A stretch of 64,000 nucleotides of DNA from Deltaproteobacteria bacterium (lineage in GTDB: Bacteria; Myxococcota; Kuafuiibacteriia; Kuafuiibacteriales; Kuafuiibacteriaceae), in assembly GCA_016703535.1 (NCBI GenBank), contig JADJBV010000001.1:385014-449013 (forward strand), written 5' to 3'. The position numbers and the translations under genes are program-made. Shown here one piece after another: positions 1-18,479 of this stretch (its first letter is position 1; each line of letters opens with the position of its first letter). The notes beneath the pieces were generated by a model. It did no database searches and was not told where the DNA came from. It saw nothing but the letters and a program-made list of their open reading frames with translations.

Positions 1-1
1 T

Positions 2-3000
2 CTGGCCCAGCTGTTTCGGGAGTTGATCGAGAAGTGGGACGCGGTCGCCACCAGCCCGATCTTCCGGGATGATCTTTTGCGCAGCCGCTTGGGTGAGCTG
101 GAGGCCTTGCTCGACGAGATCCAGGCCGCCCACGACAACCGAGCTCAAGAGGGCAACGAGGTCGAACGTTTGCTGGGCGCCTTGCGCTCGGCGGGGCAGA
201 CCTTGGAGGGCCTCCGGCTGGCCGAACAATCGGTGGAGCTTCGCCGAGATCTGGATCGTACCGCCAAAGACGCGGCGGCCTTGTTCGACTCGATGAAGAA
301 GGAGGTCCTGGAGATCCGTCGCCTCGAGGAGGCCGAGGACTCCTATCGGCAGCTGGTGAACGCCCGGGGGCGGCTCCAGGGCGTGAGGGAGAACGACCTC
401 TTCATCAAGCTCCGCTTCGACGGCGAGGTGGCCCGGCCCGAGGTGCGCAGCGAGGGCGAGCTCGCGGCCAAAGCTTCAGCCGAAGCCGAGGTTTTGGTGG
501 CGGCGGAGGTCCAGGCTGAACACCTGCGCCTGGCGGCCGAGGTTCAAAGGGCCATGGACGCCAGCGCCCCGGTGAATCCGGCCGCCATGTACCAAGGCTT
601 CGATCCGGTCGCCGCGGGCCTCGTGCCGGGCCCGATGGGCGCCGAACGACCCGTCCTCGATCCGGTGGCTCAGAGCCAAGCGCAGCTTGAGGGGCAACTC
701 TCGACCTTCGGCAAGAAGCGGCAGGCCCTCCACGAGCGAAAGATCCTGGCGCGGCTCAAGCAAGAGGAGGAGCAGCGGGCCACCCGCACCTACCAGGACC
801 GAGTCCGGAACCGGGCCAACGAGATCGCGGCCCGGGTGAACAAGACCGTGGCCGATCTGGCGGGAGAGCTGGAGATCCTGGATCGCAGCCTCCGGCTGGC
901 CGAGCGGGCGCCGAAGCTCCACGCCGAGCTGCTCGAGGTGCGGGCCGAGGTGGCCGCGGCCGTCAAGGAGGCCCGGCATTGGGCCACCAAGCTGGTGGAT
1001 TTCGCCACCGCGGCGGGGCGCACACTCCTCGATGGCGCAATCTTTACGCTGGACGTTTTTTCCTTCGGGCTCTTCGGTCTGTCGAAGAAGCGGAGGGCCG
1101 CCGAAGCGGAGCAGGCCCCCACCTTGGACCTGGTGCCCACTCAGCAGCGGGCCGCCAAGCTCTTGGATCGGGTCCACGACTGGCTGACGGCCGAGATCGA
1201 GGCCCTGCCCGACTTCAAGCGGATGCCGGTGCACCGAGAGGCCACGGTCAACCTAGAGGCCGAGCTCTTGGCCGCGACCAAACTCGGCGAGTTGGCCTCT
1301 CGTTACGCCAAACTCACCGAATACTTCCAGAAGGAGGACAACCAGGTCTTCCGCCGTTATTTGTCCCAGCTCCTGGACCGGCTGGGCGGTGCCCGGGATA
1401 CGCAAGAGATCTTGCAGCGGGTGCAGGCCTTCACCGACAGCGCTGACCTGCTCTCCAACGAGATCGCGGGCCGGGGTGTGGCGTTGGAGTTGGCTCCGGT
1501 GGTGGAGTCGGTGATGAAGGCCGCCGAAACCTTGCGGGCCCAGAGCCTGAAGGATCAGACCTACCGTTTGCCCGTTCGTCAGCTCCGTCAGGCCATCCAG
1601 AACATCGACGCCTTGGGGCCCCCGGAGGATCAACCCCCGGTGTTGCGGGCGGTGCGCCAAGAGATGGAGAAGTTGGTCGGCCTGCTCACCGCGGGCGCCG
1701 ACGGTCCGCTGCGGGATCGGACCGAAGAGGCGGCCCTCGCTTTCACCCAGCTGCTCTCCCGCCGGGGTCGGACCAGCGCCGAACTCGAGGACGACGATGG
1801 CCAGGTCCAGGAAGACGAACGGACCTTGGAGGTGCGGGACGCCGATCGAGATCGGGCCACCGCCCCCACCGCTCGGGCCGAACAGAGCTTGAGTGCGTTG
1901 CCCACCGGCGGTGCGCCGTTGCGAGCGGTGGATCAACGCCGCCGGGCCGACGAGCTGGTGGTGATCCACATCGAGAGCAACCCCGTCGAGGTCAACGGGC
2001 CACCACCTGCCGTCGCCGAAGGAGAGGCGCCGCCCCCTCCCAACGAGGCGCTGTTGGCGCTGCGGGCCCGGGCGGCGGCCGCGGCTGGCAAGTTGGACAC
2101 CCAGGTCAAAAAGGCGATCGGCGGTCTGCCGGCTCAAAAGAAGGTCCTGCTGGAGGTCTTGGGGCAACTCGAGGCCCAAACCCGGGTCGCGGCTTTGGAT
2201 CAATGGCGCGAACAATTGGCCGGATTGGCGGGCCACTTGGAGGCGGTAGCGGTGGGGGGCGCCGACCCACGCCAGGCCCAAATTGAGGTGGCCCGGGCGG
2301 TTTCGGGGCTCCGGGCCGCGGTGCGAGGGCTCCAAGGCCTCGAGTGTTTGGCGCCGGCGGCCTTGGCCCAGCTCGAGGTCGTGTTGTCCAGGACCGGCGC
2401 CTTGGCCCAGGCCTTTGGCAGCGAGCTGTTCCGGGCCAAAGCCGAGGCCTGGGGCGCCGACGCACTTTTGGCGTTGCGGGAGACCGAAGCTCAACTCCTC
2501 GAACGGCGCGGTGCCCTGGAGGCCGAGGTGGTCAAGCCCAAGGCCGCCGGTGAACTCCTGGAGCGGCTCTCGACCCTCGGCGCTTGGCTCGCCAAAGACG
2601 AGTCTCGGATCGGCGCCTACTCTCGGTTTCAGCTCCTGGCCCACCTGCACCAGCGCCTGAGCGGGGTGGTCGAGGTCTTGCCGAAGAAGGCACTACCCGA
2701 GGCCCATGCGCTCCTCGTTCAGGTGGAGGGGACCGCCGAGTTGATGCGCCAACGCTCCGGCGGGCTGGAGGGCGATCAGACCGCGGCCGACCTGCATGGC
2801 GCCTACCTCGACTTGGGGCGGGCCCTGGCGGTGACCAAGTCGGAGCAGGCCCCGGTCGAGGCCTACGAAAACCTCGGCGCCTTGCTCTGGGGACTCCTAG
2901 GGGGTGGCAAGCGGGAACCGGCGCCCCTGCTCGATCGCTACCAGACCACCATCGAAGTGCTGCAGGCCTTGGAGGCCAAGGTGAAGGGGCCGGGCCGGGC

Positions 3001-5935
3001 CGCCGCCACCGAGATGATCCGGGCCGTGCACGAGCTGCGGAGCCAGGTGATGAACCAGGAACTCAGCGGCCACTTCGCCACCTGGAACCAGACCACCGGC
3101 GAGTCGATCGATCGACTCCGGGACCTCTCCGGCAACTTGGCGGAGACGGCGCGGCGCTTCGTCTCCTACGATCCTCTTTCGGAGCCGCTGACCGTCGGCG
3201 AACTGGCCGACGCCTTGACCGCGGTCTTGAAGGGCCTCGATCGGGGGCTGGTCGGTCCGGGGGCGGCCTTGCTCGCGGGGCAACTGGTCAACCTCGACGA
3301 AAAACTCCAGCTCCTGGCCGAGACGCCCAACGAGTTGGGGCGCCGGGCTCGCCTGTTGGCGGGCCGGGTCACCGAACTTTTGGCCGGCCTCAAGGTCCTC
3401 CAGGGTTCGGAGTTGATGCCCCGTTTTGCCGAGCTCACCCGCGCGGCCCACCAGACCTTCGAAGAGGCCCGCCAAAAGGGCGTCAGTCGGGAGACCTTGA
3501 GCTGGGCCGAAAAGTTGGTGGGGCGCTTGCCCGAGCTCCTCGAGGCCCCTCCGGCCCGGGTGTTGGAGGTCTTCGGGCAGGTGGAGGCCGATCTTTTCCC
3601 GGAGCTGGTGCGGAGACGAGAACGGGTCGAACAGCGGGCCCGGACGATCACCGCCGAGGCCGAAGCGGCGGCGGCGTTGCCCAAGGTCGAGAGCCAGGTC
3701 GCGGAGCTGCTCCGTCGTGAGCAACAAACCGCCACGGTGGGCGTCGGCGCCGGCAAGGTGCGGACGAACGCGAGCGCCTCCGCCGGTGGCGCTGCGGGGC
3801 TGGGCGCTTCGATCGGTGCGCCCATCGACTCGCCGGTCTTGAGCCTCCTCTCTCGCCGCCGGGCCCCCCTCGGCGTGGCCTCGGTCGAAGGAGGCACCAT
3901 CCTCGACTCTTTGGTCCTCGAAGGCCGGCCCCGGGGCCCCCACCTGGACGCGCCCGATCCCACCGACGCCCCGATCGAGCCGGGTCGAGGTCCGGGCACC
4001 GGCTCAACGGCCCGGGGCAAGGTCCTCGATCGGGACGCCCGCTTGGGCGCAGTCAAGCGCAACCCGCTGCCCTCTCGCCCCCTCGAGGAGCGCTCCAAAC
4101 CTCTCCAGGGCCTGGAGCTGAAGAAGAACTGGCTCCAGGATCACAAAAAGGCCCTGGATCAGGCGGTCAAAGAGGCGCAAGCCGCCTTGCGGGGCTCCGA
4201 CCAGGCCGATCTCGCCGAGCTCAACGACTACCAACGCCACAAGGAGGAGAACCGGGATCGGATCGCCAAGATGGCGGGGATCTTGCGCGCCCTCGGGAAC
4301 GTCGAGCTTTTGGTGTTGGTCGATCAATCGGGCTCGACCAGCGACGCCTTTGGCGAACACTCGATCTTGGACATGGAGCGGGCCGGCGCCTCCTTGTTGA
4401 TGGGGGCGGTCCAGCAGAGCGAAAGCAACTGCGCCATCTTCGGCTTCGGCGCTCGCAGCATCGGGCGCGACGGGATGGCACCGGTCGCCCAGTCGGGTCG
4501 CTTCTTCATCTTCCCCCACAAGAGCATGGCCGAGCCCTTGGACGACTCCACCGGCGACGCGGTCTTCGGGATGTTGAGCGAAAGTGATGGAGGCACCGAC
4601 ATCGACGTGGCCCTGGACGTGGTCGGGCGCCCCGAGATGTTTTCGGCGACGGCCAACCACAAGGCGGTGGTGTTGTTCACCGACGCGCAGGTCGGCAACC
4701 CCGAGGAGGTGCGGCAGAAGATCGCCGAGCTGCAGCACCGCGGCATCCCGGTGGTCCTGGTCTGTATGGGCGACGAAGGCCACGCTCGGGCCATCGATCC
4801 CGAAGGTGAATTCGCGATCAGCGTCCGCTCTTTGGACGAGATGTTGACCCGCTTGCCTTCCGTCTTCCAAAAGACACTGACCCAACACGCCAAAGCCCAG
4901 GCGGGTCACATCCTCGGCTCGGCCGCGGGCATCGGGGTCGCCGACGGTCACCACCCCCTCCAGGCGCCCGGCGCGGCCTCCTTGAACCTGGTCGACAACC
5001 TGCACCAGCCTTTGCCCGAACCCCAAGGCGACGGTGGCCTGGTGGTGCCGACAGGTGAACGCCGGGAGCAGCGCAACCTGGTCGATCGCCAGCGCTACGA
5101 ACAGGCGAAGAACGTCCTGCGCCTGGAGCGGGCCCAACGCCGAGGGACCCCCGAGCTGAAGCGGGCCAAGGTGGAGATCTTGGGCCTGGCCGCGCGGCAA
5201 AGCCGAGAAGGCATCAGCCAGACGCTGCGGCAGGCCTTCTTCCACGGCATGCCTCGGGCCCGGGGTTCGGAGATGGAGAAGCGCCAATTCTCCGGCCCGT
5301 ACTTCGATGAAGATCAGCTGCCGCTTTATTTGATCGGCCTGGCCCAAGGGGTGCCGGAGCTGCGGCTCTTCAAGCGGAGGAAGCCGGTCGGGAAGTCTCA
5401 ATCCCGCCTGGTGATCAACGCCGACATCTCGACCTCCACCAGCCGGCCCGAGGTGCGACGAGCGATGATCGAGAGCATCATTGCGGAGGTGGACGCGTAC
5501 AAAGACGCCAACCCCGGTGGCCAGGTGGCGATCATCTCCAGCTCCGACAAGGTCCGGCTCCACCAGGCCTTCGACATGGACTGGAACGACGAAGCCAAGG
5601 CTCACCTCCTGATGGAGCTCAACGAGTCCCACCCGGCCACCGACGACGAACGGGGTGACCTGGAGGCGATCGGCCTCCTCGACCTGATGGGGACCGACGT
5701 CGGCATGATCTTGACCCACACCGACGGTCAGGGAATGCCCGGGGCTGTCGACGTGACCCGTTCCGCGGCCCAACGGGGCTACGGGATGCTCAACGTCGGG
5801 GTCGGGGCCGATTGCCGCAGCGTGGTCCGCTTCGGCGAACACGGCCTCTACGCCCGAAACGTCAGCCAAATGGCCCATCGCTTTTGGGATTCGCTCCTCA
5901 AGGTATGGGAGTCGGCGGGGAGGGTGGTCCAGTAG
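2..5935 (+). CDS. Giant protein of at least 1978 aa, incomplete at its 5' end. It has a long Ala/Leu/Glu-rich alpha-helical coiled-coil N-terminal region and two vWA domains near the C-terminus.
   Basis: The reading frame is open from base 2 with no upstream stop, so the true start lies outside the window. vWA domain 1 has the MIDAS motif DQSGSTSD at about 4320 and ends VVLFTDAQ...VVLVCMGDEGH. vWA domain 2 has DISTSTS at about 5420 and ends THTDGQG. The stop codon TAG is at 5933-5935. Confidence 0.8.
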   Translation: MAQLFRELIEKWDAVATSPIFRDDLLRSRLGELEALLDEIQAAHDNRAQEGNEVERLLGALRSAGQTLEGLRLAEQSVELRRDLDRTAKDAAALFDSMKKEVLEIRRLEEAEDSYRQLVNARGRLQGVRENDLFIKLRFDGEVARPEVRSEGELAAKASAEAEVLVAAEVQAEHLRLAAEVQRAMDASAPVNPAAMYQGFDPVAAGLVPGPMGAERPVLDPVAQSQAQLEGQLSTFGKKRQALHERKILARLKQEEEQRATRTYQDRVRNRANEIAARVNKTVADLAGELEILDRSLRLAERAPKLHAELLEVRAEVAAAVKEARHWATKLVDFATAAGRTLLDGAIFTLDVFSFGLFGLSKKRRAAEAEQAPTLDLVPTQQRAAKLLDRVHDWLTAEIEALPDFKRMPVHREATVNLEAELLAATKLGELASRYAKLTEYFQKEDNQVFRRYLSQLLDRLGGARDTQEILQRVQAFTDSADLLSNEIAGRGVALELAPVVESVMKAAETLRAQSLKDQTYRLPVRQLRQAIQNIDALGPPEDQPPVLRAVRQEMEKLVGLLTAGADGPLRDRTEEAALAFTQLLSRRGRTSAELEDDDGQVQEDERTLEVRDADRDRATAPTARAEQSLSALPTGGAPLRAVDQRRRADELVVIHIESNPVEVNGPPPAVAEGEAPPPPNEALLALRARAAAAAGKLDTQVKKAIGGLPAQKKVLLEVLGQLEAQTRVAALDQWREQLAGLAGHLEAVAVGGADPRQAQIEVARAVSGLRAAVRGLQGLECLAPAALAQLEVVLSRTGALAQAFGSELFRAKAEAWGADALLALRETEAQLLERRGALEAEVVKPKAAGELLERLSTLGAWLAKDESRIGAYSRFQLLAHLHQRLSGVVEVLPKKALPEAHALLVQVEGTAELMRQRSGGLEGDQTAADLHGAYLDLGRALAVTKSEQAPVEAYENLGALLWGLLGGGKREPAPLLDRYQTTIEVLQALEAKVKGPGRAAATEMIRAVHELRSQVMNQELSGHFATWNQTTGESIDRLRDLSGNLAETARRFVSYDPLSEPLTVGELADALTAVLKGLDRGLVGPGAALLAGQLVNLDEKLQLLAETPNELGRRARLLAGRVTELLAGLKVLQGSELMPRFAELTRAAHQTFEEARQKGVSRETLSWAEKLVGRLPELLEAPPARVLEVFGQVEADLFPELVRRRERVEQRARTITAEAEAAAALPKVESQVAELLRREQQTATVGVGAGKVRTNASASAGGAAGLGASIGAPIDSPVLSLLSRRRAPLGVASVEGGTILDSLVLEGRPRGPHLDAPDPTDAPIEPGRGPGTGSTARGKVLDRDARLGAVKRNPLPSRPLEERSKPLQGLELKKNWLQDHKKALDQAVKEAQAALRGSDQADLAELNDYQRHKEENRDRIAKMAGILRALGNVELLVLVDQSGSTSDAFGEHSILDMERAGASLLMGAVQQSESNCAIFGFGARSIGRDGMAPVAQSGRFFIFPHKSMAEPLDDSTGDAVFGMLSESDGGTDIDVALDVVGRPEMFSATANHKAVVLFTDAQVGNPEEVRQKIAELQHRGIPVVLVCMGDEGHARAIDPEGEFAISVRSLDEMLTRLPSVFQKTLTQHAKAQAGHILGSAAGIGVADGHHPLQAPGAASLNLVDNLHQPLPEPQGDGGLVVPTGERREQRNLVDRQRYEQAKNVLRLERAQRRGTPELKRAKVEILGLAARQSREGISQTLRQAFFHGMPRARGSEMEKRQFSGPYFDEDQLPLYLIGLAQGVPELRLFKRRKPVGKSQSRLVINADISTSTSRPEVRRAMIESIIAEVDAYKDANPGGQVAIISSSDKVRLHQAFDMDWNDEAKAHLLMELNESHPATDDERGDLEAIGLLDLMGTDVGMILTHTDGQGMPGAVDVTRSAAQRGYGMLNVGVGADCRSVVRFGEHGLYARNVSQMAHRFWDSLLKVWESAGRVVQ

Positions 5936-5937: not shown

Positions 5938-6384
5938 ATGGCCCGCCGCATCTTCAATGGCCTGGAGGTCGAGATCCCCGAGGGATGGAGGGATTACTCC
6001 AGCATCGTGTTGGCGCCGCAAGAAGACGCGACAACTGGGCAACTCCCGACGATCAACTTGGTAGTGAAACGTAGGCCTGCGAGCGGTCGGGAAGGGGGAA
6101 CCCTGGTTTCCACCTACCTCGACTACTTGGCCCGGAGCTTCGGGCCCCTCCAGTCTTTGGAGACCAAAGAGGTGGACCACGGTCCGGCCCGGGCCACGGC
6201 CGTGCGCTTTCGAGCCGAACACGAAGGCCGCGCCTTCCAGCAGACGACCTTGTTGTACCGCTTTGGCGAAGACGAGATCGCCGCCACCGTCACCCAAAGC
6301 GACGGCGACCCGACCTCGACCAAGGAAGTGGAGAAGTTGCTCCACTCGGTGCGCCCCGTCGCGGGCCCGAGGCGGCGGTCATGA
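5938..6384 (+). CDS. Small 148-aa protein with DUF1795/DcrB-like fold features, of the EagR-type adaptor class.
   Basis: The ATG lies 2 nt after the stop of the giant gene. The protein carries an N-terminal FNGLEVEIPEGWRDYS motif and a C-terminal FQQTTLLYRFGEDEIAATVT motif, both reminiscent of the DUF1795 consensus. The assignment is by eye only. Confidence 0.45.
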   Translation: MARRIFNGLEVEIPEGWRDYSSIVLAPQEDATTGQLPTINLVVKRRPASGREGGTLVSTYLDYLARSFGPLQSLETKEVDHGPARATAVRFRAEHEGRAFQQTTLLYRFGEDEIAATVTQSDGDPTSTKEVEKLLHSVRPVAGPRRRS

Positions 6385-8009
6385 TCCACTCCTTCCTCCA
6401 GAGCGGCAGCGCCCGCTTCGAGCAGCTGGCGGGCCCCGAGTTGGCGATCGCGGTCCGGGAGATCGACAGCAAGTTCCAGCCGGACTGGAAGAAGAACGAC
6501 GTCGCCGAACGCACCCGAGCCACGGTCGTCGAGCCCTTCCAGCGGGCGATGGCGGCCCACGGCCAACCCCGTTTGTTGCGCTCTTTTTCGATCGGCGAAA
6601 AGAAGGAAGACCTCGAGCTGGTGGGCCCGGGCCACAACAAGGCCGAAGAACAGCTCCACTTCCTGGAGTTGGGTGAACAGGTTTTTGTGGTCGCCTCCTA
6701 TCAACGGGATCACGACCGGACCGAACTGCGCCTTTATCCGCCCCTGCCGCGCCGAGGTGTGCCGACCCTCGAGGCCCTCAAGGAGCGTGGCTTTCAAGGC
6801 CTGTACGGCCAAGATCGGGGCGACGTCGAGGTCGTGCGTTTGTTCCGGGAGCGGGGCCCACGCACCGACGTCCAGTTCGGCAAAGGCAAACGCTACGAAG
6901 ATCAAAACTTCGCCTGGGCCCTTTACGAGTCGTTGACCTCGGCCTTGCGCCGGGGGGATCGCTCGGCGGCCTCATTGGGCCCGGAGTTGATCAAGGCCCA
7001 GCGGATCCACGAGTTCGTGGACGCCCGCCTGCGAGAGGGCCGGCCGGTGAACTTTTCGCTGCTATTGCCCTACTTGGCCCACGCCAAAGGCCAACTTTTG
7101 CCTGACGGTCCGCCGGGCGGACAGGTGTTGCTCCACGCCCTGGAGTGGAACGGCAAAACCGTGGCCGTCACCCAAGAGCTCGGCCCCAAGCCGCGGATCC
7201 GGGCGTTCTTGCGCGATCAGATCGGTGAACAGCCGACGTGGCTGGAGCTCCGGTTCCCAGCCCAGGCCGAGGTCCCGGCCCGAGGTGTTTCGGCTTTGAT
7301 CCAAGGAGATCGGCTGCGGCTCTTCGGCGGCGTCGACCGCGCGAACAACGGCTTGGCCACCGAGTGGACTTTTGCGCTGGAGCAAGGCGCGCGCAACGCC
7401 TACCTGGACAGCACCTTTCAACCGGGCCCCGGGCTGGACGGGCCCCGAGCTTTTGCGACGGCGATCGCCCCCGACCGGGTGGCCTTGTTGGGCGGCGTGG
7501 CCGGCTTCTACGCGGGTCGCGGGAAGGCCGAAGCCGAGGCCCCGGCCTGGCAACGTCGATGGTCGGAGCAGGCCAAGGGCCAAGCCGGCTGGCGCGACGC
7601 GGGCGCACTCCCCGATCGGATGAGCGGCGGTGGGTCGACCTTCGCCACCGCCGATGGCGCCTTTGTCGGGCCGGGCGCGGGCCTGGACGGTCGCCTCTGT
7701 TATCTGGACTTCAAGAATCGAGTGGCGATCGAGTTGCCCGAGTTGCCGGGCCGCCTGGGCCTGGGACAACTCCACTTGGACGACTCGGTGCTCTACTACT
7801 CGGGCGGCTACGGTCTTCGGGGTGACGGCGCGAGCGCCGAGAAGATCGTCTATGGCTTGGATCTCAACCAGCTCGATGGCTGGAAGAAGATCGGCGACTG
7901 CCAACTTTTGGCCGGCTCCAACCGGCTGGTCCACCGGGGCGGCCGCCCGATGATCCTGGGGCTCTCTCCTCAGGGGCGCTTCACCTTCGTTCCCGGAGGT
8001 GCGCCGTGA
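6381..8009 (+). CDS. Hypothetical 542-aa protein whose C-terminal half has Gly-rich blades that may form a beta-propeller.
   Basis: Its start overlaps the upstream stop as ATGA. Codon usage is consistent with the neighbouring genes. No catalytic motif was recognised. Confidence 0.6.
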   Translation: MIHSFLQSGSARFEQLAGPELAIAVREIDSKFQPDWKKNDVAERTRATVVEPFQRAMAAHGQPRLLRSFSIGEKKEDLELVGPGHNKAEEQLHFLELGEQVFVVASYQRDHDRTELRLYPPLPRRGVPTLEALKERGFQGLYGQDRGDVEVVRLFRERGPRTDVQFGKGKRYEDQNFAWALYESLTSALRRGDRSAASLGPELIKAQRIHEFVDARLREGRPVNFSLLLPYLAHAKGQLLPDGPPGGQVLLHALEWNGKTVAVTQELGPKPRIRAFLRDQIGEQPTWLELRFPAQAEVPARGVSALIQGDRLRLFGGVDRANNGLATEWTFALEQGARNAYLDSTFQPGPGLDGPRAFATAIAPDRVALLGGVAGFYAGRGKAEAEAPAWQRRWSEQAKGQAGWRDAGALPDRMSGGGSTFATADGAFVGPGAGLDGRLCYLDFKNRVAIELPELPGRLGLGQLHLDDSVLYYSGGYGLRGDGASAEKIVYGLDLNQLDGWKKIGDCQLLAGSNRLVHRGGRPMILGLSPQGRFTFVPGGAP

Positions 8010-8449
8010 GTTTGCTCCACCCCGAGCAGCTGCGGCACCGGGCCGAACGTTTGTTCGCCGACGTGGGCGCCCTCGGCACCGCGGCGGGCCTGGGCTTCGT
8101 GTCCGCCGAACGAGGTGTGGCCAACCAAGGCATCAAGGCCTTGGCCGACGGCCCCTGGGCCTTTTTGGATCTGCGCAACGTCGAAGGCGCCAAAGCCGAG
8201 GGGTTGTTGACCGACGTTTTGGCCGCGGGCCCGAGCCAACTGTTGATCGCCGCCCACCGGGAACCGGCGCCGGCCTTGGCGCGGGTCCTCAAGGCCTACG
8301 TCGATCGGGCCCCGGAGCTCTTGTTGGGCGGCCGAAAGCTGGCGCGGCCCGAGGGCGCCGCGGTGCTGTTGGTCCTCGACGGGGCCACCAACCTGGTGGG
8401 CCTGCCCGAACCCTACCCGAGCCTGCCTTATTGGGACTTTTTGCCATGA
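8006..8449 (+). CDS. Hypothetical 147-aa protein.
   Basis: It starts at a GTG that overlaps the upstream stop as GTGA, so it is translationally coupled. Confidence 0.5.
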   Translation: MSLLHPEQLRHRAERLFADVGALGTAAGLGFVSAERGVANQGIKALADGPWAFLDLRNVEGAKAEGLLTDVLAAGPSQLLIAAHREPAPALARVLKAYVDRAPELLLGGRKLARPEGAAVLLVLDGATNLVGLPEPYPSLPYWDFLP

Positions 8450-9932: not shown

Positions 9933-9942
9933 GGAGCAGCAA

Positions 9943-10821: not shown

Positions 10822-13263
10822 ATGCCTTTTACGCCAATCGACAAGAACATCGGTTTTTCGGCCCTGTGGGCCCAAGGCAACGACGAGCAGCTCGGCGTGG
10901 TCGAGGCGTTTGGCCGCAGGCCGATGACCGAGACGGCGTTGATGGAGTTCGCCCTCGACAACCCGGGGCTCGCCGCGACCTTAAAAGAGATGGTCCAGGT
11001 GCTGCGCCAGGGCGGGCCGGCCAAGGGCAGCGTCAACGACTTCCGGGCCAACCTTAGCCGCTCCGAGCGGGTGGGGCGGACCCGGGCGAACGCTCAGCCG
11101 GTTGACGTCGAAGCGATCATGCAGGTGATCGATCGGAACATCATCGGGCAGGCCCACGTGCGAGACGCGGTGCGGGTGATGCTGGAGGCCTGGCCGGATC
11201 AACCGGAGAAGGCCCTGCCGTACGTGATGGGTATGGCCGGACCGCCGGGCGTCGGCAAAACCGAGCTCTTCCGGGCCTTGTCCTTGGCCATCTACGGCGA
11301 CCCGGAGGCGGTGGCGATCATCGACTGCAGCAAGATCTCCAAGAAGCACGAGATCGCCGCGGTATTTGGGGCCGCGCCGGGCCTCAAGGGCACTCTCGAG
11401 GAGGGTGAGGTTCCGCCCATGTGGCGGCCGCTCTTCGAGAAACAGGTGAACGGCCGGCCGAAGCTCGTCCTATTCGATGAGCTCGACAAGGTCGGCGCGG
11501 GCGAAGACTCGGCCGAGGCGCGGCAGGAGGCGGTCACCGCCTTCTCGATGACCCTGGGCCGCTTCCTCGAGGACGGCGTGCTCGGTTTCGGCAACGGGGT
11601 CTCCATCCCGCTCAAGGACTGTGTGATTGGCTTCGCCTCGAACGCAGGATCGGCGACGCGTGGGAACAAGGAAGGCGAAGGACTGCGGCAGCACTTCGTC
11701 GATGCCTTCAACGCCATCGTGCCCCCGCACATCTTCGACCGGCTCGACACGACTTTGTCTTTCGATCCACACACCCCCGAGACCCTCGCGATGGTCGCGA
11801 AGAAGATCATCGACAAGACCGTTGCCGAAGAACTCAAAGAGGTGCGCCGGGAGTACGGGATCGACGCCCAGATGCTCTTCCAACCCCCGGGCGCTTCGCA
11901 GGCGGACGGGAGCCGGAAGGAGGGCCCCGGCGAGGTGCTGACCTTCCTCGGTGAAATCGGCTATCACCCGGAACGTGGCGCACGTGGCCTCGACAAGTTG
12001 ATCAAGTCTCTGGTCAAGCCGATGATTCGAAAGGCGGCGGCGGAGATCGAAGACGGCGAAAGGGTGCTCTTCGAGTTGCGGGACAAGATCCTCCAAGCCG
12101 ACGGGACCTTCCGCGCCGGCGGCCCCCTCGACGAGGTGAAAAAGGCCCAGCTCAAGGCCCAGTTTTTCGAAGCCAAGGCTTCCATCCCGAAGGGCGTGAA
12201 CCAGGCTTCCTTCCCCCTATCCTTTCGGGTGCTCAACCCGAAGCCCGGCTTCTTCGAGTATCAAGGCGCCGCCCAAATTCCGCACGATACGAACTTTCCG
12301 CTGCTCGTCTACGGCTCAGGGGCGGTCAACGGCCGCGGCTTCATGGTCTCCCAGCCCCACCTCGACGCACCGGCGGCGCTCCACTTCTTGCGACCGGGCC
12401 TCTTCGAGCATGAAGACCGGGTCGACTCGGTGCGGCTGCCGGAACACTTGGAGAAGGCCGAGCACGACCTCAAGGCGGTGGCCCTCGACGATCGCCAGGT
12501 GATGATCTACGGCGTCGGCACCGCCAAGGGGGGGGCAATGGCCGAGGCGCTGGCCGCGATCTACGACACCAAGACCAAGAAGTGGAGGGACGCCGCTCCG
12601 CCGGATCTGCCGCTGGTCGGCGCGTCCTTGGTCGCCGGAAATGGCAAGGCGCTCCTCTTCGGCGGCCGGGTTCAGGAGAAGAGCGCGGATGGTTCCTGGG
12701 CGGTCGACGACGACCCGCTGCGGATGCGGGGACAGCCGATCGAGAACCAGGCCTATGTCTACGACTCGAAGAAGGACGAGTGGCGTTGGGTCCAGGGCCC
12801 TGAGGATGGCCTGGTCGGATCCGCGACCGTGTTCCAGCAGGGGAAGGGGTACATCATCGGCGGCGAGGAGACTTTCCGTCGGGAGAACTCCCAGATCGAC
12901 AGCTCTCGGGCCTCCCGGCGGGTCCTGGTCTTCGACTTCGAGACCGAGACCTTCGCCGCCGGCCCTCGGCTGCCGGCCAAGTTCGAGCAGGGCCTCGCTT
13001 TCGGGACCGCCTTCGCCGACGCCAACGGAGGCATCTCGGTGGTCGGCGGAGGCGTGTACCTCGACGGCGGGAGAAAGTTGGAGCCCACCCAAAGCTACTA
13101 CCGGCTCTCGGGTGGTGCCTGGCGGAGCGGAGATATGCCCCAGCCCGGTCTCTGCTTGAGTGCGCTGCCGCAGGCCGAGTCGTCCTGGGTGATCGGGCCT
13201 TTCCGCCGGGACGCCAACACCTTCGGCTTCGACATTCTCCGCCCGCGGACCACGGAGGATTGA
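10822..13263 (+). CDS. ClpA/ClpB-D2-type AAA+ ATPase of 813 aa with a single AAA module and a C-terminal Kelch-like beta-propeller.
   Basis: Walker A is GPPGVGKTE and Walker B is LVLFDELDK. IIDCSKISKKHEIAAVFGAAPGLKGTLEEGE corresponds to ClpB-D2 [30 protein letters not shown]. The sensor-2 motif is GARGLDKLIK, matching GARPLKRAIQ. The C-terminus carries repeated GG...W/Y..YD blades at about 12290-13260. Confidence 0.85.
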   Translation: MPFTPIDKNIGFSALWAQGNDEQLGVVEAFGRRPMTETALMEFALDNPGLAATLKEMVQVLRQGGPAKGSVNDFRANLSRSERVGRTRANAQPVDVEAIMQVIDRNIIGQAHVRDAVRVMLEAWPDQPEKALPYVMGMAGPPGVGKTELFRALSLAIYGDPEAVAIIDCSKISKKHEIAAVFGAAPGLKGTLEEGEVPPMWRPLFEKQVNGRPKLVLFDELDKVGAGEDSAEARQEAVTAFSMTLGRFLEDGVLGFGNGVSIPLKDCVIGFASNAGSATRGNKEGEGLRQHFVDAFNAIVPPHIFDRLDTTLSFDPHTPETLAMVAKKIIDKTVAEELKEVRREYGIDAQMLFQPPGASQADGSRKEGPGEVLTFLGEIGYHPERGARGLDKLIKSLVKPMIRKAAAEIEDGERVLFELRDKILQADGTFRAGGPLDEVKKAQLKAQFFEAKASIPKGVNQASFPLSFRVLNPKPGFFEYQGAAQIPHDTNFPLLVYGSGAVNGRGFMVSQPHLDAPAALHFLRPGLFEHEDRVDSVRLPEHLEKAEHDLKAVALDDRQVMIYGVGTAKGGAMAEALAAIYDTKTKKWRDAAPPDLPLVGASLVAGNGKALLFGGRVQEKSADGSWAVDDDPLRMRGQPIENQAYVYDSKKDEWRWVQGPEDGLVGSATVFQQGKGYIIGGEETFRRENSQIDSSRASRRVLVFDFETETFAAGPRLPAKFEQGLAFGTAFADANGGISVVGGGVYLDGGRKLEPTQSYYRLSGGAWRSGDMPQPGLCLSALPQAESSWVIGPFRRDANTFGFDILRPRTTED

Positions 13264-13266: not shown

Positions 13267-15975
13267 ATGGCCCGCCCCACCATTGCCACCGCGCCCGCGA
13301 CCATCAAGCCGTCGCGCTTCGGCCTCGCGCCGGAGCACGAGGCTTGGCTCAAGCAGGAGTTCGGCGAGCAACCGTCCATCCATGACCTCGACCGGGTCGA
13401 GCGGGCCGGCGGCCTGACCGCCACCCAGAAGCGCATCCTCGACGCCGTGCGCCGATCGGTGGTGGGCAACCTGCGGGCAACCGCGGGGGTGGCCTTCAAC
13501 AAGGACGGAAAGGTCGAGCCCGGGACTCAGCGGATCTGGACTCTCCGCACGGCCAAAGTGCCGACGGGCCACCTCTCGAAGGCCGCCGCCTTCGAGGCCG
13601 AGATGAAGCCGTTCCTGATCGGCCAGGTTGGGGCGCTCAAAGACTTCAAGCGTTTCCTCGACGCCTACAACCCCCTCGTCAAGAACACGCCGCCGATGAT
13701 GGTCATCGGCGGGGAGGAGGGCCACGGGAAGTCCGAGGCCTTGGATGGGTTGGCCAAAGCGCTCTTCGGCGAAGCGGCCACGGTGTTCACCGTCGACCTC
13801 AGCAAGGTCACCGACGACATGCACGACGCGCTCTTTTCGGCCGGCGGCAAAAAGGGCGATCTTTCGGTCCCCCGTCTGATGGAGATCGAAGACAACAAGT
13901 TGGGGATCGTCCACCTCACCGGGCTTGACCAGTTGAAGGCGCGGGCGCCCCAGATCGCCGACACCCTGCTCAATCGCTTGGGCTGCCGCGCCGACGACAA
14001 GGACCACGCCTGGGTCCCCTTCGTGCTCGACTTCGACAGCGCACCCGACACCAAGCTGGCCCCGATCCTCGAGGATGCCTTGGGCAAGGCGGCGGTCCTT
14101 TTGCGCAAGGCCCAAAGCTCCTTTCAGTATCTCGACGCGGACGCGATGGCCGAGTACCTGGAGATCGCCTTGCCCCAGCTCCTGCAGCGGCCAGGGCTGG
14201 GCCAACTCCACCTTGAGTGGGACGACGAGGCCAAGGCGGCCTTCGCCGAGGTCCTCGCCACCCGCTTGACGCCCATCGATCAATTGCAGCCCCGCCTGGA
14301 GAACCTGATCCTGGGGCCGGTCAGCGCCGAGATGGTCCCGGCCGACGCGTTGCTGCGGGTCCACCTCCTCGCGGAATACGCCGATCACCCGGACAAGCTC
14401 GCGGCGGCAATCAAGGAGCTGCAGGACCCGGCGCTGGACCTCCTCGAGGCGCCCCAGATCTTCACGGTCACCGAGGAGGGGCGGGTTGCGGATCCGGCCT
14501 TGGTGGAGGGACTGATCGAGAACTCGGAACAAGTGCTCGAAGCGCTGCTGCAGTGCTCCCAGCACCATGACCTGGAGGTCCGGCGGCTGTTCCCCGAGTA
14601 CGATCGGCTGGAGCGGCTGGACCAAGTGATGGGCGAGATGGCCACGGCGCTTCGCACGCGGGCTAGGCAGAAGGGCAAGCTGATCTTCGAGCCCGCGCCG
14701 CACGAGCGGCTGGGCGGGTTGGTCGCTGAATGCGAGAAGCTGGTCGCTCAGTTGGGCCGAATGACGGCGGAGCGGCAAGCGCAGCTCGATGTGTCGATGC
14801 CCGCCCACGTGGTGGTGGCCCTCCAGAGTGTCCTCGAAGGGGTGCGGCTCATCGCACAAGCCTCCGACCTGTTGCGCGGTGAAGCGCCGACGCCAGACGG
14901 CACGCGGGCCCACGCGGCGCAGCTGAACCGGGCCATCGAAGCCCTGACCAACGCCCGCGGGCTATTGCCGATCGGCAACCTGGGCAAAAACCGGATCACT
15001 CATCAGCTGCAGGCGCTGGCCGCGAAGTGGATCGAGGCGGTTGCGGTGGCGCGTCGGTCCCAGCAAGAGGGCATGTTCCCGCTGGTACTGGAGACCGACG
15101 CTCAGGATCTGATCGATGAGGCCCGAAAGCTCCGCGGCCAACTCCCGGTCAAGCCTTTGGCTAAGGGTGAGCGAGAGACCAACGTCCGGCGTTTGTTCGA
15201 GTCCAGTCCCGAGGCCAAGAAGGAGCTGAAGGACCTCGATCGTCTCGTCAAGATGACCATCGAAGTCGCCGAAAACCTGGGGGGCCTGTCGGACGCTCAG
15301 CGCAAGACGGTGGCAGACCTAGCCAAGGAGGAGAGCGCGGACTCGTTGTCCGCTCGTCGCAAGATCGCCAAGGAGCTGATCACCTGCGAAAACGGCGCGA
15401 CCGATGTCGACGAACGTCTGGTCAGGGCCGAGTTGATCAAGCTACCGAAGGCGGCGCTCGAGCGGCTCAAGAAGACCGAGGTGAAGGTCTACGTCGTGCG
15501 GGGCAAGATCACCGACTTCTTGAAGCAGCTCCCCAAGGGCGCCCGTCCGCCCGGGTACCCCGAAGGCAAGACCTTCGACGATGTGCCGGCGATCTTCGTG
15601 CCGAAGGAGGCTGAGGGCAATGACAAGGGGGACATCGTCGTCATCGTCACCAAGGAGGTGAATGGGAACGTGATCCTGCCCGGCCTCGACGTAAAGCGCG
15701 GCTACAACCAGGTCATCCACGAGTGCCTCCACGGCTTGGATGTGCAGAACTACTACAGCACGAAGGAGGAGTTCGTCTCGGCGAGAGAGGCGGAGCTGGG
15801 CGTCCTCAGCCAGTACGAGAAGCAGGCCAAGGAAGGGAACTTCGATCGGGGGGCCGCTGAGACCTGGGCCATCACCGGCGAGCGCCTCTATGGCGGCGAC
15901 GAGAGCGTTCGCAAGGAACGTCCGCTCCTCGTCAAGGTCGTCGAGGACGCCTTCGGGACAGGGGCGTTCGCATGA
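13267..15975 (+). CDS. Divergent ClpB-D2-like AAA+ module of 902 aa with a C-terminal zincin-type HExxH metallopeptidase-like domain.
   Basis: Walker A is GGEEGHGKSE. Walker B is the atypical IVHLTGLDQ, with DQ in place of DE. A long helical middle region follows. The C-terminal HECLH motif at 15718-15732 is preceded by the hydrophobic beta-strand stretch VILPGLDVKRGYNQVI, as is typical of zincins. Confidence 0.7.
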   Translation: MARPTIATAPATIKPSRFGLAPEHEAWLKQEFGEQPSIHDLDRVERAGGLTATQKRILDAVRRSVVGNLRATAGVAFNKDGKVEPGTQRIWTLRTAKVPTGHLSKAAAFEAEMKPFLIGQVGALKDFKRFLDAYNPLVKNTPPMMVIGGEEGHGKSEALDGLAKALFGEAATVFTVDLSKVTDDMHDALFSAGGKKGDLSVPRLMEIEDNKLGIVHLTGLDQLKARAPQIADTLLNRLGCRADDKDHAWVPFVLDFDSAPDTKLAPILEDALGKAAVLLRKAQSSFQYLDADAMAEYLEIALPQLLQRPGLGQLHLEWDDEAKAAFAEVLATRLTPIDQLQPRLENLILGPVSAEMVPADALLRVHLLAEYADHPDKLAAAIKELQDPALDLLEAPQIFTVTEEGRVADPALVEGLIENSEQVLEALLQCSQHHDLEVRRLFPEYDRLERLDQVMGEMATALRTRARQKGKLIFEPAPHERLGGLVAECEKLVAQLGRMTAERQAQLDVSMPAHVVVALQSVLEGVRLIAQASDLLRGEAPTPDGTRAHAAQLNRAIEALTNARGLLPIGNLGKNRITHQLQALAAKWIEAVAVARRSQQEGMFPLVLETDAQDLIDEARKLRGQLPVKPLAKGERETNVRRLFESSPEAKKELKDLDRLVKMTIEVAENLGGLSDAQRKTVADLAKEESADSLSARRKIAKELITCENGATDVDERLVRAELIKLPKAALERLKKTEVKVYVVRGKITDFLKQLPKGARPPGYPEGKTFDDVPAIFVPKEAEGNDKGDIVVIVTKEVNGNVILPGLDVKRGYNQVIHECLHGLDVQNYYSTKEEFVSAREAELGVLSQYEKQAKEGNFDRGAAETWAITGERLYGGDESVRKERPLLVKVVEDAFGTGAFA

Positions 15976-16199
15976 GCCAGCCCAAGTTCATCGGCATCGC
16001 CGAGATGGATGAGCGGGGTGTCTTGGACCTCCGCCTCTCGGCGGCCTCGCCCTACGGCTTTGGAGGTTCCCACTTCACCTACTTCCCCGACGATCCCGAA
16101 TACGACGCGGTCATCCGGCACCTCGGCGGGATGCGCCCGGGCGAGACCAAGTCGGTCCCGCCTTGGCCCGAGGGCTCCTCGATGGGGGGTGCTTCATGA
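15972..16199 (+). CDS. Small hypothetical 75-aa protein.
   Basis: It is coupled on both sides by ATGA overlaps, at 15972 upstream and 16196 downstream. Confidence 0.45.
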   Translation: MSQPKFIGIAEMDERGVLDLRLSAASPYGFGGSHFTYFPDDPEYDAVIRHLGGMRPGETKSVPPWPEGSSMGGAS

Positions 16200-17200
16200 G
16201 CAACGGCAACCGGCCCCTCGGTGGCTACGATCCGAACAAGGCCGTCGATCGGCAAGCGGGGGCGACGGCCTTCCAGCCCAAGGTGAAGCCGGGCGCCGAA
16301 ACCCAGGCCAAGGTCGAGGGCGGGGGCGTGGAGCCGAAGCTCGCGCCCCGCACCATGGCCCTCCCACGGATCTCCGCCAAGGAGCGGCCGGTTGAGGCCG
16401 GCTATGAAGAGCACCTCGAGCGGCTAGAGGAGGCCATCGAGCAGCAGACCGCGGCGATCGTCGAGCATGTGGCCGAGATCGCCGCCGAAAAGGGCCTCGA
16501 TCCCAGCGACGTGACCCTGGTCTGGTCCTTGGACATCACCGGGAGACAGGACGTGGTCTGCTCCTTCTGCGGCCGCCCGAGCTGCACGTTCCGGCCGGTC
16601 CAGTACCGCACCCGCAACCCGGAGGTTGATCTCCTTGGGGACTCGATCATCGTGTTCCAGGAGGCCGCCGCGCGGGCGGGCGTGAAGTACGGGATCATCG
16701 TGTACGACGAGGAGGTCTTGGTGCTGAGGGACCCGGCCACCGCGGGCGACCAGGCGGAGCGGGCCGACACCCTCACGCGCTACACCCAGTTCCGGGATCG
16801 GCACGACTACCCGGATCCCAATAGCCAAAGTTGGCTGCAGCAAGCCTTGGCCAAATGGAACCCCGCCGACGCCGCGCGGCGCGTGTCCGGAGATCCGGCC
16901 GACGGTCGAATGTTCGAGGCGGCCTTCAAGATCTTCCAGCAGGTCGGCGGCGCCTTCAAGTCGATGGTGGTAGCCAAGTCGGTCGAACCGCGAGGCGGGA
17001 TCAGGGGCTTCGAGGTCCGGGCCAAGCAGGCGGGGATCCAGATGACCGGCCTCGCGGTCGGCGATCGCGCAGAGGCGGTGGCCCGGCGGTTCCTGGACCG
17101 AACGTTGATCGCCCAGGACGCCCACCAACTCCGGGATAGAGTGGGCGACGGGGTCAATACGTCCCTCCAGGCGATCAAGGACCTCCCGGCGAAGGGCTGA
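16196..17200 (+). CDS. Hypothetical 334-aa protein.
   Basis: Its ATG overlaps the upstream stop. It contains a CSFCGRPSC Cys cluster. The track ORF at 16163 is an over-extension of this gene. Confidence 0.55.
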   Translation: MSNGNRPLGGYDPNKAVDRQAGATAFQPKVKPGAETQAKVEGGGVEPKLAPRTMALPRISAKERPVEAGYEEHLERLEEAIEQQTAAIVEHVAEIAAEKGLDPSDVTLVWSLDITGRQDVVCSFCGRPSCTFRPVQYRTRNPEVDLLGDSIIVFQEAAARAGVKYGIIVYDEEVLVLRDPATAGDQAERADTLTRYTQFRDRHDYPDPNSQSWLQQALAKWNPADAARRVSGDPADGRMFEAAFKIFQQVGGAFKSMVVAKSVEPRGGIRGFEVRAKQAGIQMTGLAVGDRAEAVARRFLDRTLIAQDAHQLRDRVGDGVNTSLQAIKDLPAKG

Positions 17201-17201
17201 T

Positions 17202-18479
17202 ATGGTCAAGCGAGTTGAAGGAGCCGCCGACTTCTATCGAGGGTTGGCCAAAAGTCTGGACGGGGCTCGGGTCGATCCGGCCAAGCTGGGTGAGATCCAG
17301 GACGTCGTCGAGAGCCTCTCGCCCGAGGCGCCGCTCACCCTGCAGATCATCGATGGCCTCGGGCTCTCGGCGGGGCTGCGGGCCAACCTGATCTTCGCTT
17401 GGCTGAACCACCGCTATCCCGACCAGATCGAGGAGCAACTGCCGGTGGCCCAGTCGATCGCTGGGGTCCTCCGAGCTTTGGTCGATGGGGGTCAGCCCCC
17501 CGCGTTCTTGCAGGAGTTCTACGTGCGCCTCACCCATACGCCAGCGTATGGCGGCGCCGCGGAGATCCACGCCTTGGCAGACCTACTTGAGAAGGGGCAG
17601 CCGCGTTACGTCGGCGAGCGCGACGGGCGCGTGGTCTTTCAGGCCAGCGTCGGCGCTGACCTTCGGGCCCACTTTCCGGACCAGCTTCGGGAGCAAGAGG
17701 TCACCTTGGTCGCCTCCCCAGACGGCGGTGGTGGGTTCCAGCTGAGGCCGGAGGGCGGGAAGTCCTTGGCGGCGCTCAAGGGGGAGCCAGCCCAGCTGGG
17801 TGAACTCCCGCCGGGGGCGCTCGCGGGCTTGGTGGCGGCGCTGAAAGCGGGCGCGCAGCGGGGTGGTCTCGCCCAAGTGGGGAAGGCGCTCCGAACCGAA
17901 CTCGGGCGGGCCGCGGAGGGCTATGAGGCGCCGGTCCACCCGGTGGAGGCGAGGTTGGACCAGTTGCTGCGGCTGACCCTCGGCAACCAGCGGGTGGGCG
18001 AGACCCGATTGGAGAGCCTGAACCAGCTGATCGAGCAGTCCCTTGCCGCGGCGGAGCTGGCGATGCAGTCGCCGGGGGCGGTGCAGGTGCTGCTCAGCGC
18101 GGCCAAAAGCGTCGAGGCTCTGGAGGTACCGGAGGACGGCTACCAGGCCTCGGGCTTGTCGCTTCCCAAGCTCAAAGAGCGGCCGGCCCCGGCGAACAAG
18201 GCGTCGGCGAAGGCCTCCACGCCCGAACCCGAGGAGGCGCCCAAGGCCTCCGCCGATCCGCTGAAGCCCACCGACCCATCGCCCGATCCGACGTCCCCCA
18301 GCGGGAACCAGGGCGGCGATGCGGACATCGGGGGAGGCGGGGGCTGGGCCAACGCGACAGGCAACCCCAGGATGATCACTCGGCGGCCCCGGGGCCGGTC
18401 GGTGACGCTCCCGGACGACCTCGACTTGGCGGCGCTGAAAGCCTTGGTGGCATTGCTCCGGCGACATCCACGGGCCTGA
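17202..18479 (+). CDS. Hypothetical 425-aa protein with an N-terminal domain paralogous to the gene at 9943-10818 and a Pro/Gly-rich low-complexity C-terminus.
   Basis: Its ATG lies 1 nt after the upstream stop. The paralogy is visible in the GLGLS...RYPDQ motif. It is the last gene of the operon. Confidence 0.6.
   Translation: MVKRVEGAADFYRGLAKSLDGARVDPAKLGEIQDVVESLSPEAPLTLQIIDGLGLSAGLRANLIFAWLNHRYPDQIEEQLPVAQSIAGVLRALVDGGQPPAFLQEFYVRLTHTPAYGGAAEIHALADLLEKGQPRYVGERDGRVVFQASVGADLRAHFPDQLREQEVTLVASPDGGGGFQLRPEGGKSLAALKGEPAQLGELPPGALAGLVAALKAGAQRGGLAQVGKALRTELGRAAEGYEAPVHPVEARLDQLLRLTLGNQRVGETRLESLNQLIEQSLAAAELAMQSPGAVQVLLSAAKSVEALEVPEDGYQASGLSLPKLKERPAPANKASAKASTPEPEEAPKASADPLKPTDPSPDPTSPSGNQGGDADIGGGGGWANATGNPRMITRRPRGRSVTLPDDLDLAALKALVALLRRHPRA

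Follow-up and report, generated by a model that had tools for sequence, protein, structure and literature searches.

A Midasin-Like Giant AAA+ Protein in a Conserved Twelve-Gene Operon of Uncultured Myxococcota

INTRODUCTION

What does a bacterium build from twelve tightly coupled genes, most of whose products belong to no described family? The question is raised by positions 1-18479 of a 64,000-nucleotide (nt) stretch, here called the window, of contig JADJBV010000001.1 (assembly GCA_016703535.1, positions 385,014 to 449,013 of the forward strand). This block is the downstream 18.5 kb of a 12-gene operon of about 25 kb from an uncultured member of the Myxococcota, and the first of its genes encodes a giant protein with the architecture of midasin (Rea1/Mdn1), the AAA+ mechanoenzyme of pre-60S ribosome maturation in eukaryotes. 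To our knowledge, ribosome biogenesis of the eukaryotic type does not exist in bacteria. The answer developed below, about which our confidence is evenly balanced, is that the block makes up the larger part of an operon for a cytoplasmic multi-AAA+ machine, built around the midasin-like giant, that would remodel proteins, with a role in biological conflict as a possible use.

THE OPERON AND ITS EXTENT

All 12 genes (g01 to g12) lie on the + strand within 1-18479, separated from g01 to g12 by gaps of +2, -4, -4, -4, -4, +10, +3, +3, -4, -4, and +1 nt; 6 of the 11 junctions are ATGA or GTGA overlaps. In every one of the genes, the guanine-plus-cytosine (GC) fraction at third codon positions (GC3, 0.81-0.89) far exceeds that at second positions (0.40-0.53), in surrounding DNA of 67% GC, and each is therefore read in its true coding frame. 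Gene order and near-identical product lengths recur on independent metagenome contigs at 58%, 43%, and 42% identity of g03, so that chance in GC-rich DNA does not account for the arrangement, and conservation with the same order extends to at least 10 independent assemblies (JGI, Logan, ENA, and NCBI). A first-pass annotation of the same DNA had described 12 packed genes on one strand, and its coordinates and junction types hold; its view of the block as one tightly coupled, nonmetabolic unit of mostly uncharacterized proteins is supported, with synteny kept down to 42% identity.

That annotation put the operon at more than 18.4 kb, which is correct but short of the true extent. A JGI contig (L001), found by exact look-up of g02 and 99.49% identical to the window over 16.4 kb, carries gene 1 as a reading frame of 4,172 amino acids (aa) starting about 6.6 kb upstream of the window's 5' edge; the operon is therefore about 25 kb long, with its first 6.6 kb outside the window. 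At the closest full-length locus (L011), a 98-aa double-zinc-ribbon open reading frame (ORF; L011:9550-9846) lies 155 nt upstream of the giant's start. Farther upstream in L011 stand unrelated lipid-metabolism genes, so that the operon's first large gene is probably the giant.

Family assignments are scarce. Most products match no family in Pfam, NCBIfam, PADLOC, or PHROG; for g02-g07 and g10-g12 the last three yielded nothing informative, and PDB searches with the four profiles tried (g02, g05, g06, and g11) found no match. At least seven protein families of the operon are without detectable relatives. A terminator and promoter scan at the operon's 3' end returned counts at chance level.

THE GIANT: A SIX-MODULE RING, A LINKER, AND TWO MIDAS DOMAINS

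The first gene, g01 (<2-5935, +), is cut by the window edge, leaving the C-terminal 1,977 aa of a protein of about 4,172 aa: the distal part of a helical linker, followed by two von Willebrand factor A (vWA) domains with metal ion-dependent adhesion sites (MIDAS). At full length gene 1 encodes 4,172-4,213 aa, the 4,172-aa product on L001 having dynein-related AAA_5 domains in its N-terminal part, and six AAA+ modules are encoded upstream of the window. These modules are present in a full-length relative of 85% identity (P0008) and in an alignment of eight giants (27-42% identity) that serves as the basis of residue invariance and of the profile used below. In the first-pass annotation the product was a giant vWA protein. 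Its two vWA domains with intact DxSxS motifs stand, but they belong to what is only the C-terminal half of a six-AAA+ midasin-like protein, whose ring escaped notice because it lies upstream of the window. Pfam recognizes four AAA_5 domains in the giant (E value of 1.5e-42) and the midasin-specific lid AAA_lid_7.

Only two of the six modules, AAA3 and AAA4, retain Walker A and B motifs. Residues G688/G693/K694/T695 and D758/E759 of AAA3 (GPASSGKT...DE), and G1023/G1025/K1026/T1027 and D1087/E1088 of AAA4 (GATGTGKT...DE), are invariant in the eight giants; AAA1 and AAA2 keep the glycine-rich loop and lack its lysine, and AAA5 and AAA6 are fully degenerate. Comparison of the modules with hhalign yields 12 of 15 pairs at probabilities of 91-99%, a network that links all six, with vWA controls below 2%; by these profiles, the six modules are mutually homologous. 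Odd-numbered modules (AAA1, AAA3, and AAA5) most resemble one another, as do the even-numbered ones (AAA2, AAA4, and AAA6; alignment A2), a pattern that suggests triplication of a two-module unit.

Behind the ring comes a linker of about 1,500 aa whose composition is helical (A+L+E+R = 49%). The two MIDAS domains are paralogous (hhalign E value of 5e-10). The first has its DQSGS motif at residue 1441 of the window fragment (about nt 4322), and the second a DISTS motif at 1808 (about nt 5423); the full sets of MIDAS residues, D3677/S3679/S3681/T3768/D3797 in vWA1 and D4044/S4046/S4048/T4116/D4144 in vWA2, are invariant in the eight giants. On a 783-kb ENA contig (L016:10001-22563) gene calling divides the giant into overlapping ORFs of 2,402 and 1,796 aa, perhaps through an assembly frameshift, or perhaps because ring and linker-MIDAS part are genuinely separate proteins there.

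RELATIONSHIP TO EUKARYOTIC MIDASIN

Midasin removes assembly factors with ubiquitin-like (UBL) domains, Rsa4 and Ytm1, from pre-60S particles, and its linker of about 1,700 aa is divided into stem, middle, and top. Like midasin, the giant is one polypeptide exceeding 4,000 aa, in which six AAA+ modules of the MoxR/dynein-midasin clade, with AAA_lid_7, stand in tandem; its terminal modules are degenerate and its central ones active (the active state here being predicted from motifs), and the ring is followed by a long helical linker and C-terminal MIDAS. A PDB search with the eight-giant profile places midasin far ahead (Mdn1, 6OR5, and Rea1, 6I27 and 5JCS; E values of 1e-81 and 2e-75), with NorQ (1e-15) and then CbbQ (4e-13) next, and the stretches matched to midasin cover the ring and the MIDAS domain. 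When the two-module units are searched singly, midasin comes first each time (E values of 5e-41, 4e-69, and 3e-45), and for the degenerate AAA5-6 unit it is the sole significant family. The second MIDAS domain also matches that of a metagenome-derived eukaryotic midasin (P0031) at an hhalign probability of 96% (E value of 5e-9).

The differences are substantial. The giant's host is bacterial (Myxococcota metagenome-assembled genomes [MAGs]). Two canonical modules, AAA3 and AAA4, compare with four in Rea1 (AAA2-AAA5; PMC6286127), two MIDAS domains compare with one, and the giant's partners are Kelch proteins rather than UBL-WD40 proteins, in an operon that also encodes Clp-type ATPases and a zincin. 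The constant partner of the giant, in which an additional N-terminal domain precedes a beta-propeller, formally resembles Rsa4/Ytm1, by analogy only.

Several observations limit the resemblance. Taken singly, AAA2 scores 66 bits with NorQ and AAA4 60 bits with CbbQ, above any single midasin module, and for this reason the midasin-like ring could be a convergent concatenation of MoxR modules. The linker of the giant has no detectable sequence homology to that of midasin: hhalign with the P0031 linker gives a probability of 0.2%, and the profile search found no PDB match for this region. Nor is there an aspartate/glutamate-rich region before MIDAS, Asp plus Glu reaching at most 27% in any 60-residue stretch of the window fragment. 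Module by module, no one-to-one correspondence between giant and midasin could be established, and midasin AAA3 and AAA5 match most bacterial modules. Separately, the stretches of midasin from the end of AAA2 to AAA3 and from the end of AAA4 to AAA5 both align to the giant's stretch from the end of AAA2 to AAA3.

The giant thus has midasin architecture, and both common descent of the six-module fusion and convergent concatenation of MoxR modules are possible. Single-chain six-module rings (midasin and dynein) have been treated as a eukaryotic invention from single-module bacterial MoxR (PMC3495828, PMC7159879), the fusion being placed early in eukaryotic evolution (PMC3495828). Against that background, it is a doubtful but consequential proposition that eukaryotic midasin, and with it the midasin-dynein stem, has in the giants its bacterial sister or donor lineage. 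If it were true, bacteria would have invented the six-AAA+ ring in one chain, together with its lever-like linker and MIDAS "hand," within an operon-encoded extraction machine, and a proto-eukaryote would have acquired it, rather than deriving it after eukaryogenesis from single-module MoxR. We found no description of a prokaryotic midasin-like protein in the searchable full-text literature, in which an earlier passing mention of bacterial multimodule relatives is possible, and none of the operon system in the searchable literature.

PARTNERS OF THE GIANT: MODULE 1

The operon falls into two modules, the first running from the giant through g05/g06 and the second from g06/g07 through g12. Within module 1, g03 and g04 are the universal partners of the giant. 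The first of them, g03 (6381-8009, +; 542 aa), has an N-terminal alpha/beta domain at about residues 1-235 and a C-terminal Kelch beta-propeller, and forms only 7 clusters among 5.8 billion proteins. A UBL-propeller of the Rsa4/Ytm1 kind was considered for g03 and rejected: the predicted secondary structure of its N-terminal domain is unlike a beta-grasp, and the resemblance is one of analogy.

The small g04 (8006-8449, +; 147 aa) alternates helices and strands, and its family is well conserved only at the extreme C terminus, the last 6-7 residues reading [YC][WS][DE][FY][LV]P (alignment A4); in the window the tail is PYWDFLP (nt 8426-8446). Such an acidic-aromatic tail suggests a docking peptide, a short acidic segment of the type that could be bound by a MIDAS site or a Kelch pocket.

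The remaining genes of module 1 are less constant. Present in the two larger operon variants and absent from the minimal cassette, g02 (5938-6384, +; 148 aa, soluble) has a weak DcrB/PsbP-like signal. Its DcrB/DUF1795 identity, claimed in the first-pass annotation, falls below threshold in the window (PF08786, E value of 3.5e-3, 17.9 bits versus a cut-off of 27.2), with weak matches also in four orthologs, and a profile of six g02 orthologs found no match in the PDB. No known family covers g05 (8446-9567, +; 373 aa), whose N-terminal half recurs at the start of a protein of about 975-1,000 aa in variant B (see "Distribution and operon variants") and whose C-terminal half has a relative in the middle of g07 (hhalign, 90.6%). 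Where the two modules meet sits g06 (9564-9932, +; 122 aa); the SCP2 lipid-binding assignment once given to it could not be sustained, its SCP2-fold matches being faint and not significant (SCP2, E value of 0.2; the related Alkyl_sulf_C, 0.027 in a lenient Pfam scan).

A PREDICTED UNFOLDASE AND A PUTATIVE PSEUDO-ATPASE PEPTIDASE: MODULE 2

The center of module 2 is a pair of large proteins. The 813-aa product of g08 (10822-13263, +) is a single-ring AAA+ protein of the ClpB-D2 type with a C-terminal Kelch propeller, as first annotated: Pfam confirms the Kelch region and scores AAA_2 at 50.8 bits versus a cut-off of 27, ClpB_D2-small falls just below threshold (18.1 versus 21.9 bits), and the TIGR03346 alignment spans ClpB residues 564-848. 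All four orthologs compared keep Walker A (GPPGVGKT) and Walker B (FDELD) unchanged. Like the D2-type unfoldases ClpB, ClpV, and ClpK, g08 combines AAA_2 and intact Walker motifs with a ClpB-D2-like GAPPG motif; unlike ClpB-type proteins, it is a single ring with neither N-domain nor middle domain, ends in a Kelch propeller, and has leucine in the window in place of the tyrosine of the GAPPGYVG pore loop. The loop reads GAAPGLKG there, GAAPGL(K/V)(G/E) across the window, L007, and L009, and GAPPGYKG only in L011.

Its neighbor g09 (13267-15975, +; 902 aa) consists of a degenerate AAA+-like domain, a long helical middle, and a C-terminal zincin-like region. The AAA+-like domain has GHGK[SAED] and a Walker B motif without the catalytic glutamate; paralogy with g08, part of the original description, receives weak support (blastp, 7e-4; hhalign, 82%), with g09 motifs that are degenerate. 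The peptidase signature reported at first is present as HExxH at residues 818-822, invariant in four orthologs and followed by a conserved REA[ED]...YE motif. Comparison with Pfam ATLF (E value of 2.9e-5, 24.3 bits versus a cut-off of 27.4) and PPEP-1/Zmp1 (E value of about 0.03 over residues 703-776) predicts a zincin resembling anthrax lethal factor or Pro-Pro endopeptidase (PPEP). An ATPase beside a pseudo-ATPase-peptidase recalls the AAA+ proteases FtsH and Lon; here, unlike those, the peptidase is lethal-factor/PPEP-like rather than of the M41 or Lon type, and it is carried on a degenerate AAA+ paralog.

The pair is flanked by smaller genes. The N-terminal domains of g07 (9943-10818, +; 291 aa) and of the last gene, g12 (17202-18479, +; 425 aa), are paralogous (blastp, 4e-10; hhalign, 98%), as had been proposed, and g05, g07, and g12 share domains pairwise; the g12 tail is low in complexity and rich in Pro, Ala, and Ser. 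The position of g10 (15972-16199, +; 75 aa) is conserved in all loci of the window type that reach it, at 67-75 aa, and g11 (16196-17200, +; 334 aa), of no known family and with a CxxCxxxxC cluster, is well conserved (52-86% identity across loci).

DISTRIBUTION AND OPERON VARIANTS

Rarity was gauged by an exhaustive HMMER search with the last 1,200 residues of the window's giant fragment as query. It matched 22 of 1.84 billion representative proteins; nine of these matches are full length (3,880-4,336 aa). The giant occurs in 4 of 185,579 species genomes (one genome per species), all of them MAGs, labeled Myxococcota (two), Deltaproteobacteria, and Bdellovibrionales. The last label is probably a taxonomy artefact, because this giant is 87% identical to that of a Myxococcota-labeled MAG and its locus has 65% GC. 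Clades of giants are mutually only 28-49% identical. A word-index search with the window fragment gave no match, the index seemingly lacking proteins of about 4,000 aa, and so provides no measure of rarity; with the AAA-ring profile, it returned only proteins of up to 3,168 aa. Scans of JGI metagenomes, with the giant's AAA region or g09 as query, found nothing, and neither did one of genomes that used g03.

The giant, g03, and g04 occur together in all nine loci whose DNA passes the giant's 3' end (L007 and L009-L016, L016 ending inside g03), and these three genes form the universal core. Three or four operon variants surround it. Variant A, the window type, has all 12 genes. Variant B comprises the giant, a g02-like gene, a two-ring ClpB-like ATPase, g03, g04, and a protein of about 1,000 aa whose start resembles the N-terminal half of g05, so that a Clp-type ATPase recurs in both A and B. 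The minimal variant, the giant with g03 and g04 only, lies between carB and an M20 peptidase gene in three related MAGs, where the giants are 77-87% identical. Finally, a 10.7-kb contig of JGI 3300071358 has a two-ring ClpB-like gene followed by g03-like Kelch and g04-like genes, with no giant immediately upstream. A PEGA-domain gene stands nearby on that contig; the window, too, has a PEGA protein (22762-24492, -), 4 kb past the operon.

A PROPOSED MACHINE AND ITS ROLE

Taken together, these features favor, by analogy with better known AAA+ systems, a cytoplasmic machine that would extract, unfold, and cleave proteins. As in Rea1/Mdn1 and MoxR-vWA pairs, ATP turnover in AAA3 and AAA4 would remodel the linker of the giant, while its MIDAS domains would grip an acidic residue of a partner, for which the invariant Asp/Glu of the g04 tail or the N-terminal domain of g03 are candidates. 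In this way a pulling force could act on whatever target the Kelch propeller holds. In the window variant, the extracted protein might then be passed on to module 2, where the ATPase g08, with a Kelch propeller of its own, and its pseudo-ATPase paralog g09, with the HExxH zincin, would jointly unfold and cleave it.

As to what such a machine is for, the most likely role, and the weakest step of the argument, is that of a regulated system for conflict or self-limitation, one of the "thresholding" MoxR-vWA type described in multicellular bacteria. The closest bacterial theme on record is that of the MoxR-vWA conflict systems of multicellular species, one subtype having beta-propellers (PMC7159879). 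These ternary systems (Kaur, Burroughs, Iyer, and Aravind, 2020; PMC7159879) resemble the operon in combining MoxR-clade AAA+, vWA/MIDAS, and beta-propeller domains, in their variable accessory genes, including peptidases and uncharacterized alpha+beta proteins, and in their social or multicellular hosts. They differ in that a single-module MoxR homohexamer works with a separate vWA protein, where the giant fuses six modules and vWA domains; in that a four-bladed propeller is fused to the vWA protein, where Kelch here is on a separate protein; and in a membrane-spanning third component, which the operon lacks. Their signature families VMAP, iSTAND, FtsH, and propeller-TPR were absent from Pfam scans of the operon. 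The rarity of the system, its restriction to Myxococcota-like MAGs, its variable accessory genes, and the reassortment of its modules (described below) fit the theme of conflict.

A number of points weigh against this proposal, in part or as a whole. The hosts of the giant are uncultured MAGs. The pore-loop aromatic of g08 is Leu in the window, and threading is not assured. The g04 tail as the MIDAS ligand is a guess from conservation alone, and a single-sequence AlphaFold model of g04, with a pLDDT of 50, was unusable. With respect to a conflict role, PADLOC gave only generic AAA+ matches on the operon, a scan of viral contigs with the giant profile found no relative, a plasmid search with g08 returned only generic Clp-type AAA+ proteins, none covering 80% of the query, and in three MAGs the three-gene core keeps a syntenic place among housekeeping genes.

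That last point leads to a different reading, which we consider unlikely though it deserves serious weight: a housekeeping-type maturation or disassembly chaperone whose MIDAS domains would remodel one large complex during its assembly, as do NorQ/NorD, CbbQ/CbbO, CoxD/CoxE, or eukaryotic midasin on the pre-60S particle, with the other genes as assembly factors. The classical role of MoxR-vWA pairs is that of chaperones in maturation (PMC13036017, PMC9976466). After midasin, the giant's AAA modules have their best PDB relatives in NorQ and CbbQ, and NorQ/NorD and CbbQ/CbbO share with the giant the logic of a vWA/MIDAS partner. Those proteins, however, form homohexamers from single-module chains of about 270 aa, have the vWA domain on another protein, and adjoin an operon for the client enzyme; no client gene (for a reductase, Rubisco, or CO dehydrogenase) is linked to the giant in any locus. 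Stable synteny of the core among housekeeping genes in three related MAGs would suit a chaperone, whereas the extreme rarity noted above and a reassorted accessory module with a peptidase would both be unusual for a core assembly factor.

Reassortment itself raises a further possibility. Window genes g01-g06 are 85-93% identical to those of L011, but g07-g09 only 49-56%; conversely, g06-g11 are 85-91% identical to those of L007, but g01-g05 only 58-72%. Nucleotide identity of about 84% extends to L011 only upstream of 9552-10008, and to L007 mainly downstream; in this interval the L011-like and L007-like stretches overlap, marking the likely recombination breakpoint. Because the two identity patterns are opposite, the block is a mosaic whose modules have been reassorted between lineages. 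Such different histories, together with the presence of module 1 without module 2 in L010 and L012-L016, could mean that two independent systems have come to be adjacent by chance or island formation. We rate this as rather improbable. In the six loci that carry module 2 (42-100% g03 identity), it always stands directly behind module 1, on the same strand, with gaps of up to 10 nt; the neighborhood comparison proposed in the first-pass annotation thus finds AAA+-Kelch and AAA+-HExxH genes recurring behind a giant vWA gene. The modules also share a domain through g05 and g07, and variant B has a Clp-type ATPase inside module 1, so that an unfoldase partner seems to be a recurring requirement.

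The earlier suggestion of a secretion or contractile apparatus, with ClpV-like recycling ATPases, g02 as an effector adaptor, and the giant as a scaffold or exported adhesin, now looks very unlikely. The ClpB/ClpV D2 type of g08 and the weak DcrB/DUF1795-clan matches in several g02 orthologs would be in keeping with it, as would one feature of the most divergent locus (L010), a 159-aa opposite-strand gene beside the cassette with a weak T3SS_needle_F match (L010:15846-16325, -). Yet all 12 products lack a signal peptide and any convincing membrane segment and are predicted to be soluble, and no structural family of type III, type IV, or type VI secretion systems was matched by Pfam or NCBIfam, for which reasons the operon is not read as a secretion system. 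Single-ring g08 scores 36.6 bits with TssH/ClpV (TIGR03345) versus a cut-off of 884.95, tss families are lacking in the window block and in related loci, and the minimal cassette between carB and the M20 peptidase gene has no envelope genes nearby; the N-terminal six-AAA+ ring, moreover, is the mark of a cytoplasmic mechanoenzyme, not of an adhesin. That the block is an artefact of chance ORFs in GC-rich DNA, which does yield many long spurious ORFs (dozens on both strands of the ORF list), or of a misassembled giant can be dismissed in view of gene-like codon-position GC in 12 of 12 genes, conserved order across assemblies, and invariant catalytic motifs.

GENOMIC SURROUNDINGS

Downstream, the block is bounded in this genome by a tRNA-Met(CAT) gene (18550-18623, +), 70 nt after g12, and past it come an alpha/beta-hydrolase ORF (18623-19564) and tRNA-Leu(CAG) (19613-19701). 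The tRNA-flanked 3' end of the operon could be an integration hotspot; related operons have other downstream neighbors, such as the unrelated amidase on the other strand that follows g12 in L009.

Farther along, a 1,753-aa protein (25625-30886, -) with DUF3686 (E value of 9e-201), DUF7902, and a C-terminal AAA_5 domain would be, by its domains, a second and unrelated MoxR-clade AAA+ giant of the same window. It is followed by a 720-aa protein of no family (30920-33082, -). GC content is 0.62-0.64 at 28000-34000, compared with about 0.67 elsewhere in the window. A Ser/Thr kinase with at least 12 WD40 repeats (44827-48306, +), another Ser/Thr kinase (20856-22760, +), and a HEAT-repeat protein (34111-37104, +) make up a content typical of Myxococcota, consistent with the taxonomy of the giant-bearing MAGs.

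IMPLICATIONS

The six-AAA+ midasin architecture has been found described only in eukaryotes, and the bacterial giant, judged by its domains, would join the known AAA+ proteins of the MoxR/midasin type with MIDAS. A deeply diversified bacterial family with the midasin plan provides a first prokaryotic comparator for the evolution of rings, linkers, and MIDAS "hands," and with it the question of where the midasin/dynein architecture came from can be put to module phylogeny and structure. The system is also much simpler and is encoded in an operon, where genes for the mechanoenzyme's partners lie beside that of the giant. The pairing of a predicted AAA+-Kelch unfoldase with a pseudo-AAA+-zincin is likewise an unusual combination. 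Should the proposed role in conflict prove correct, the operon would represent a new and very large type in the MoxR-vWA repertoire of social bacteria.

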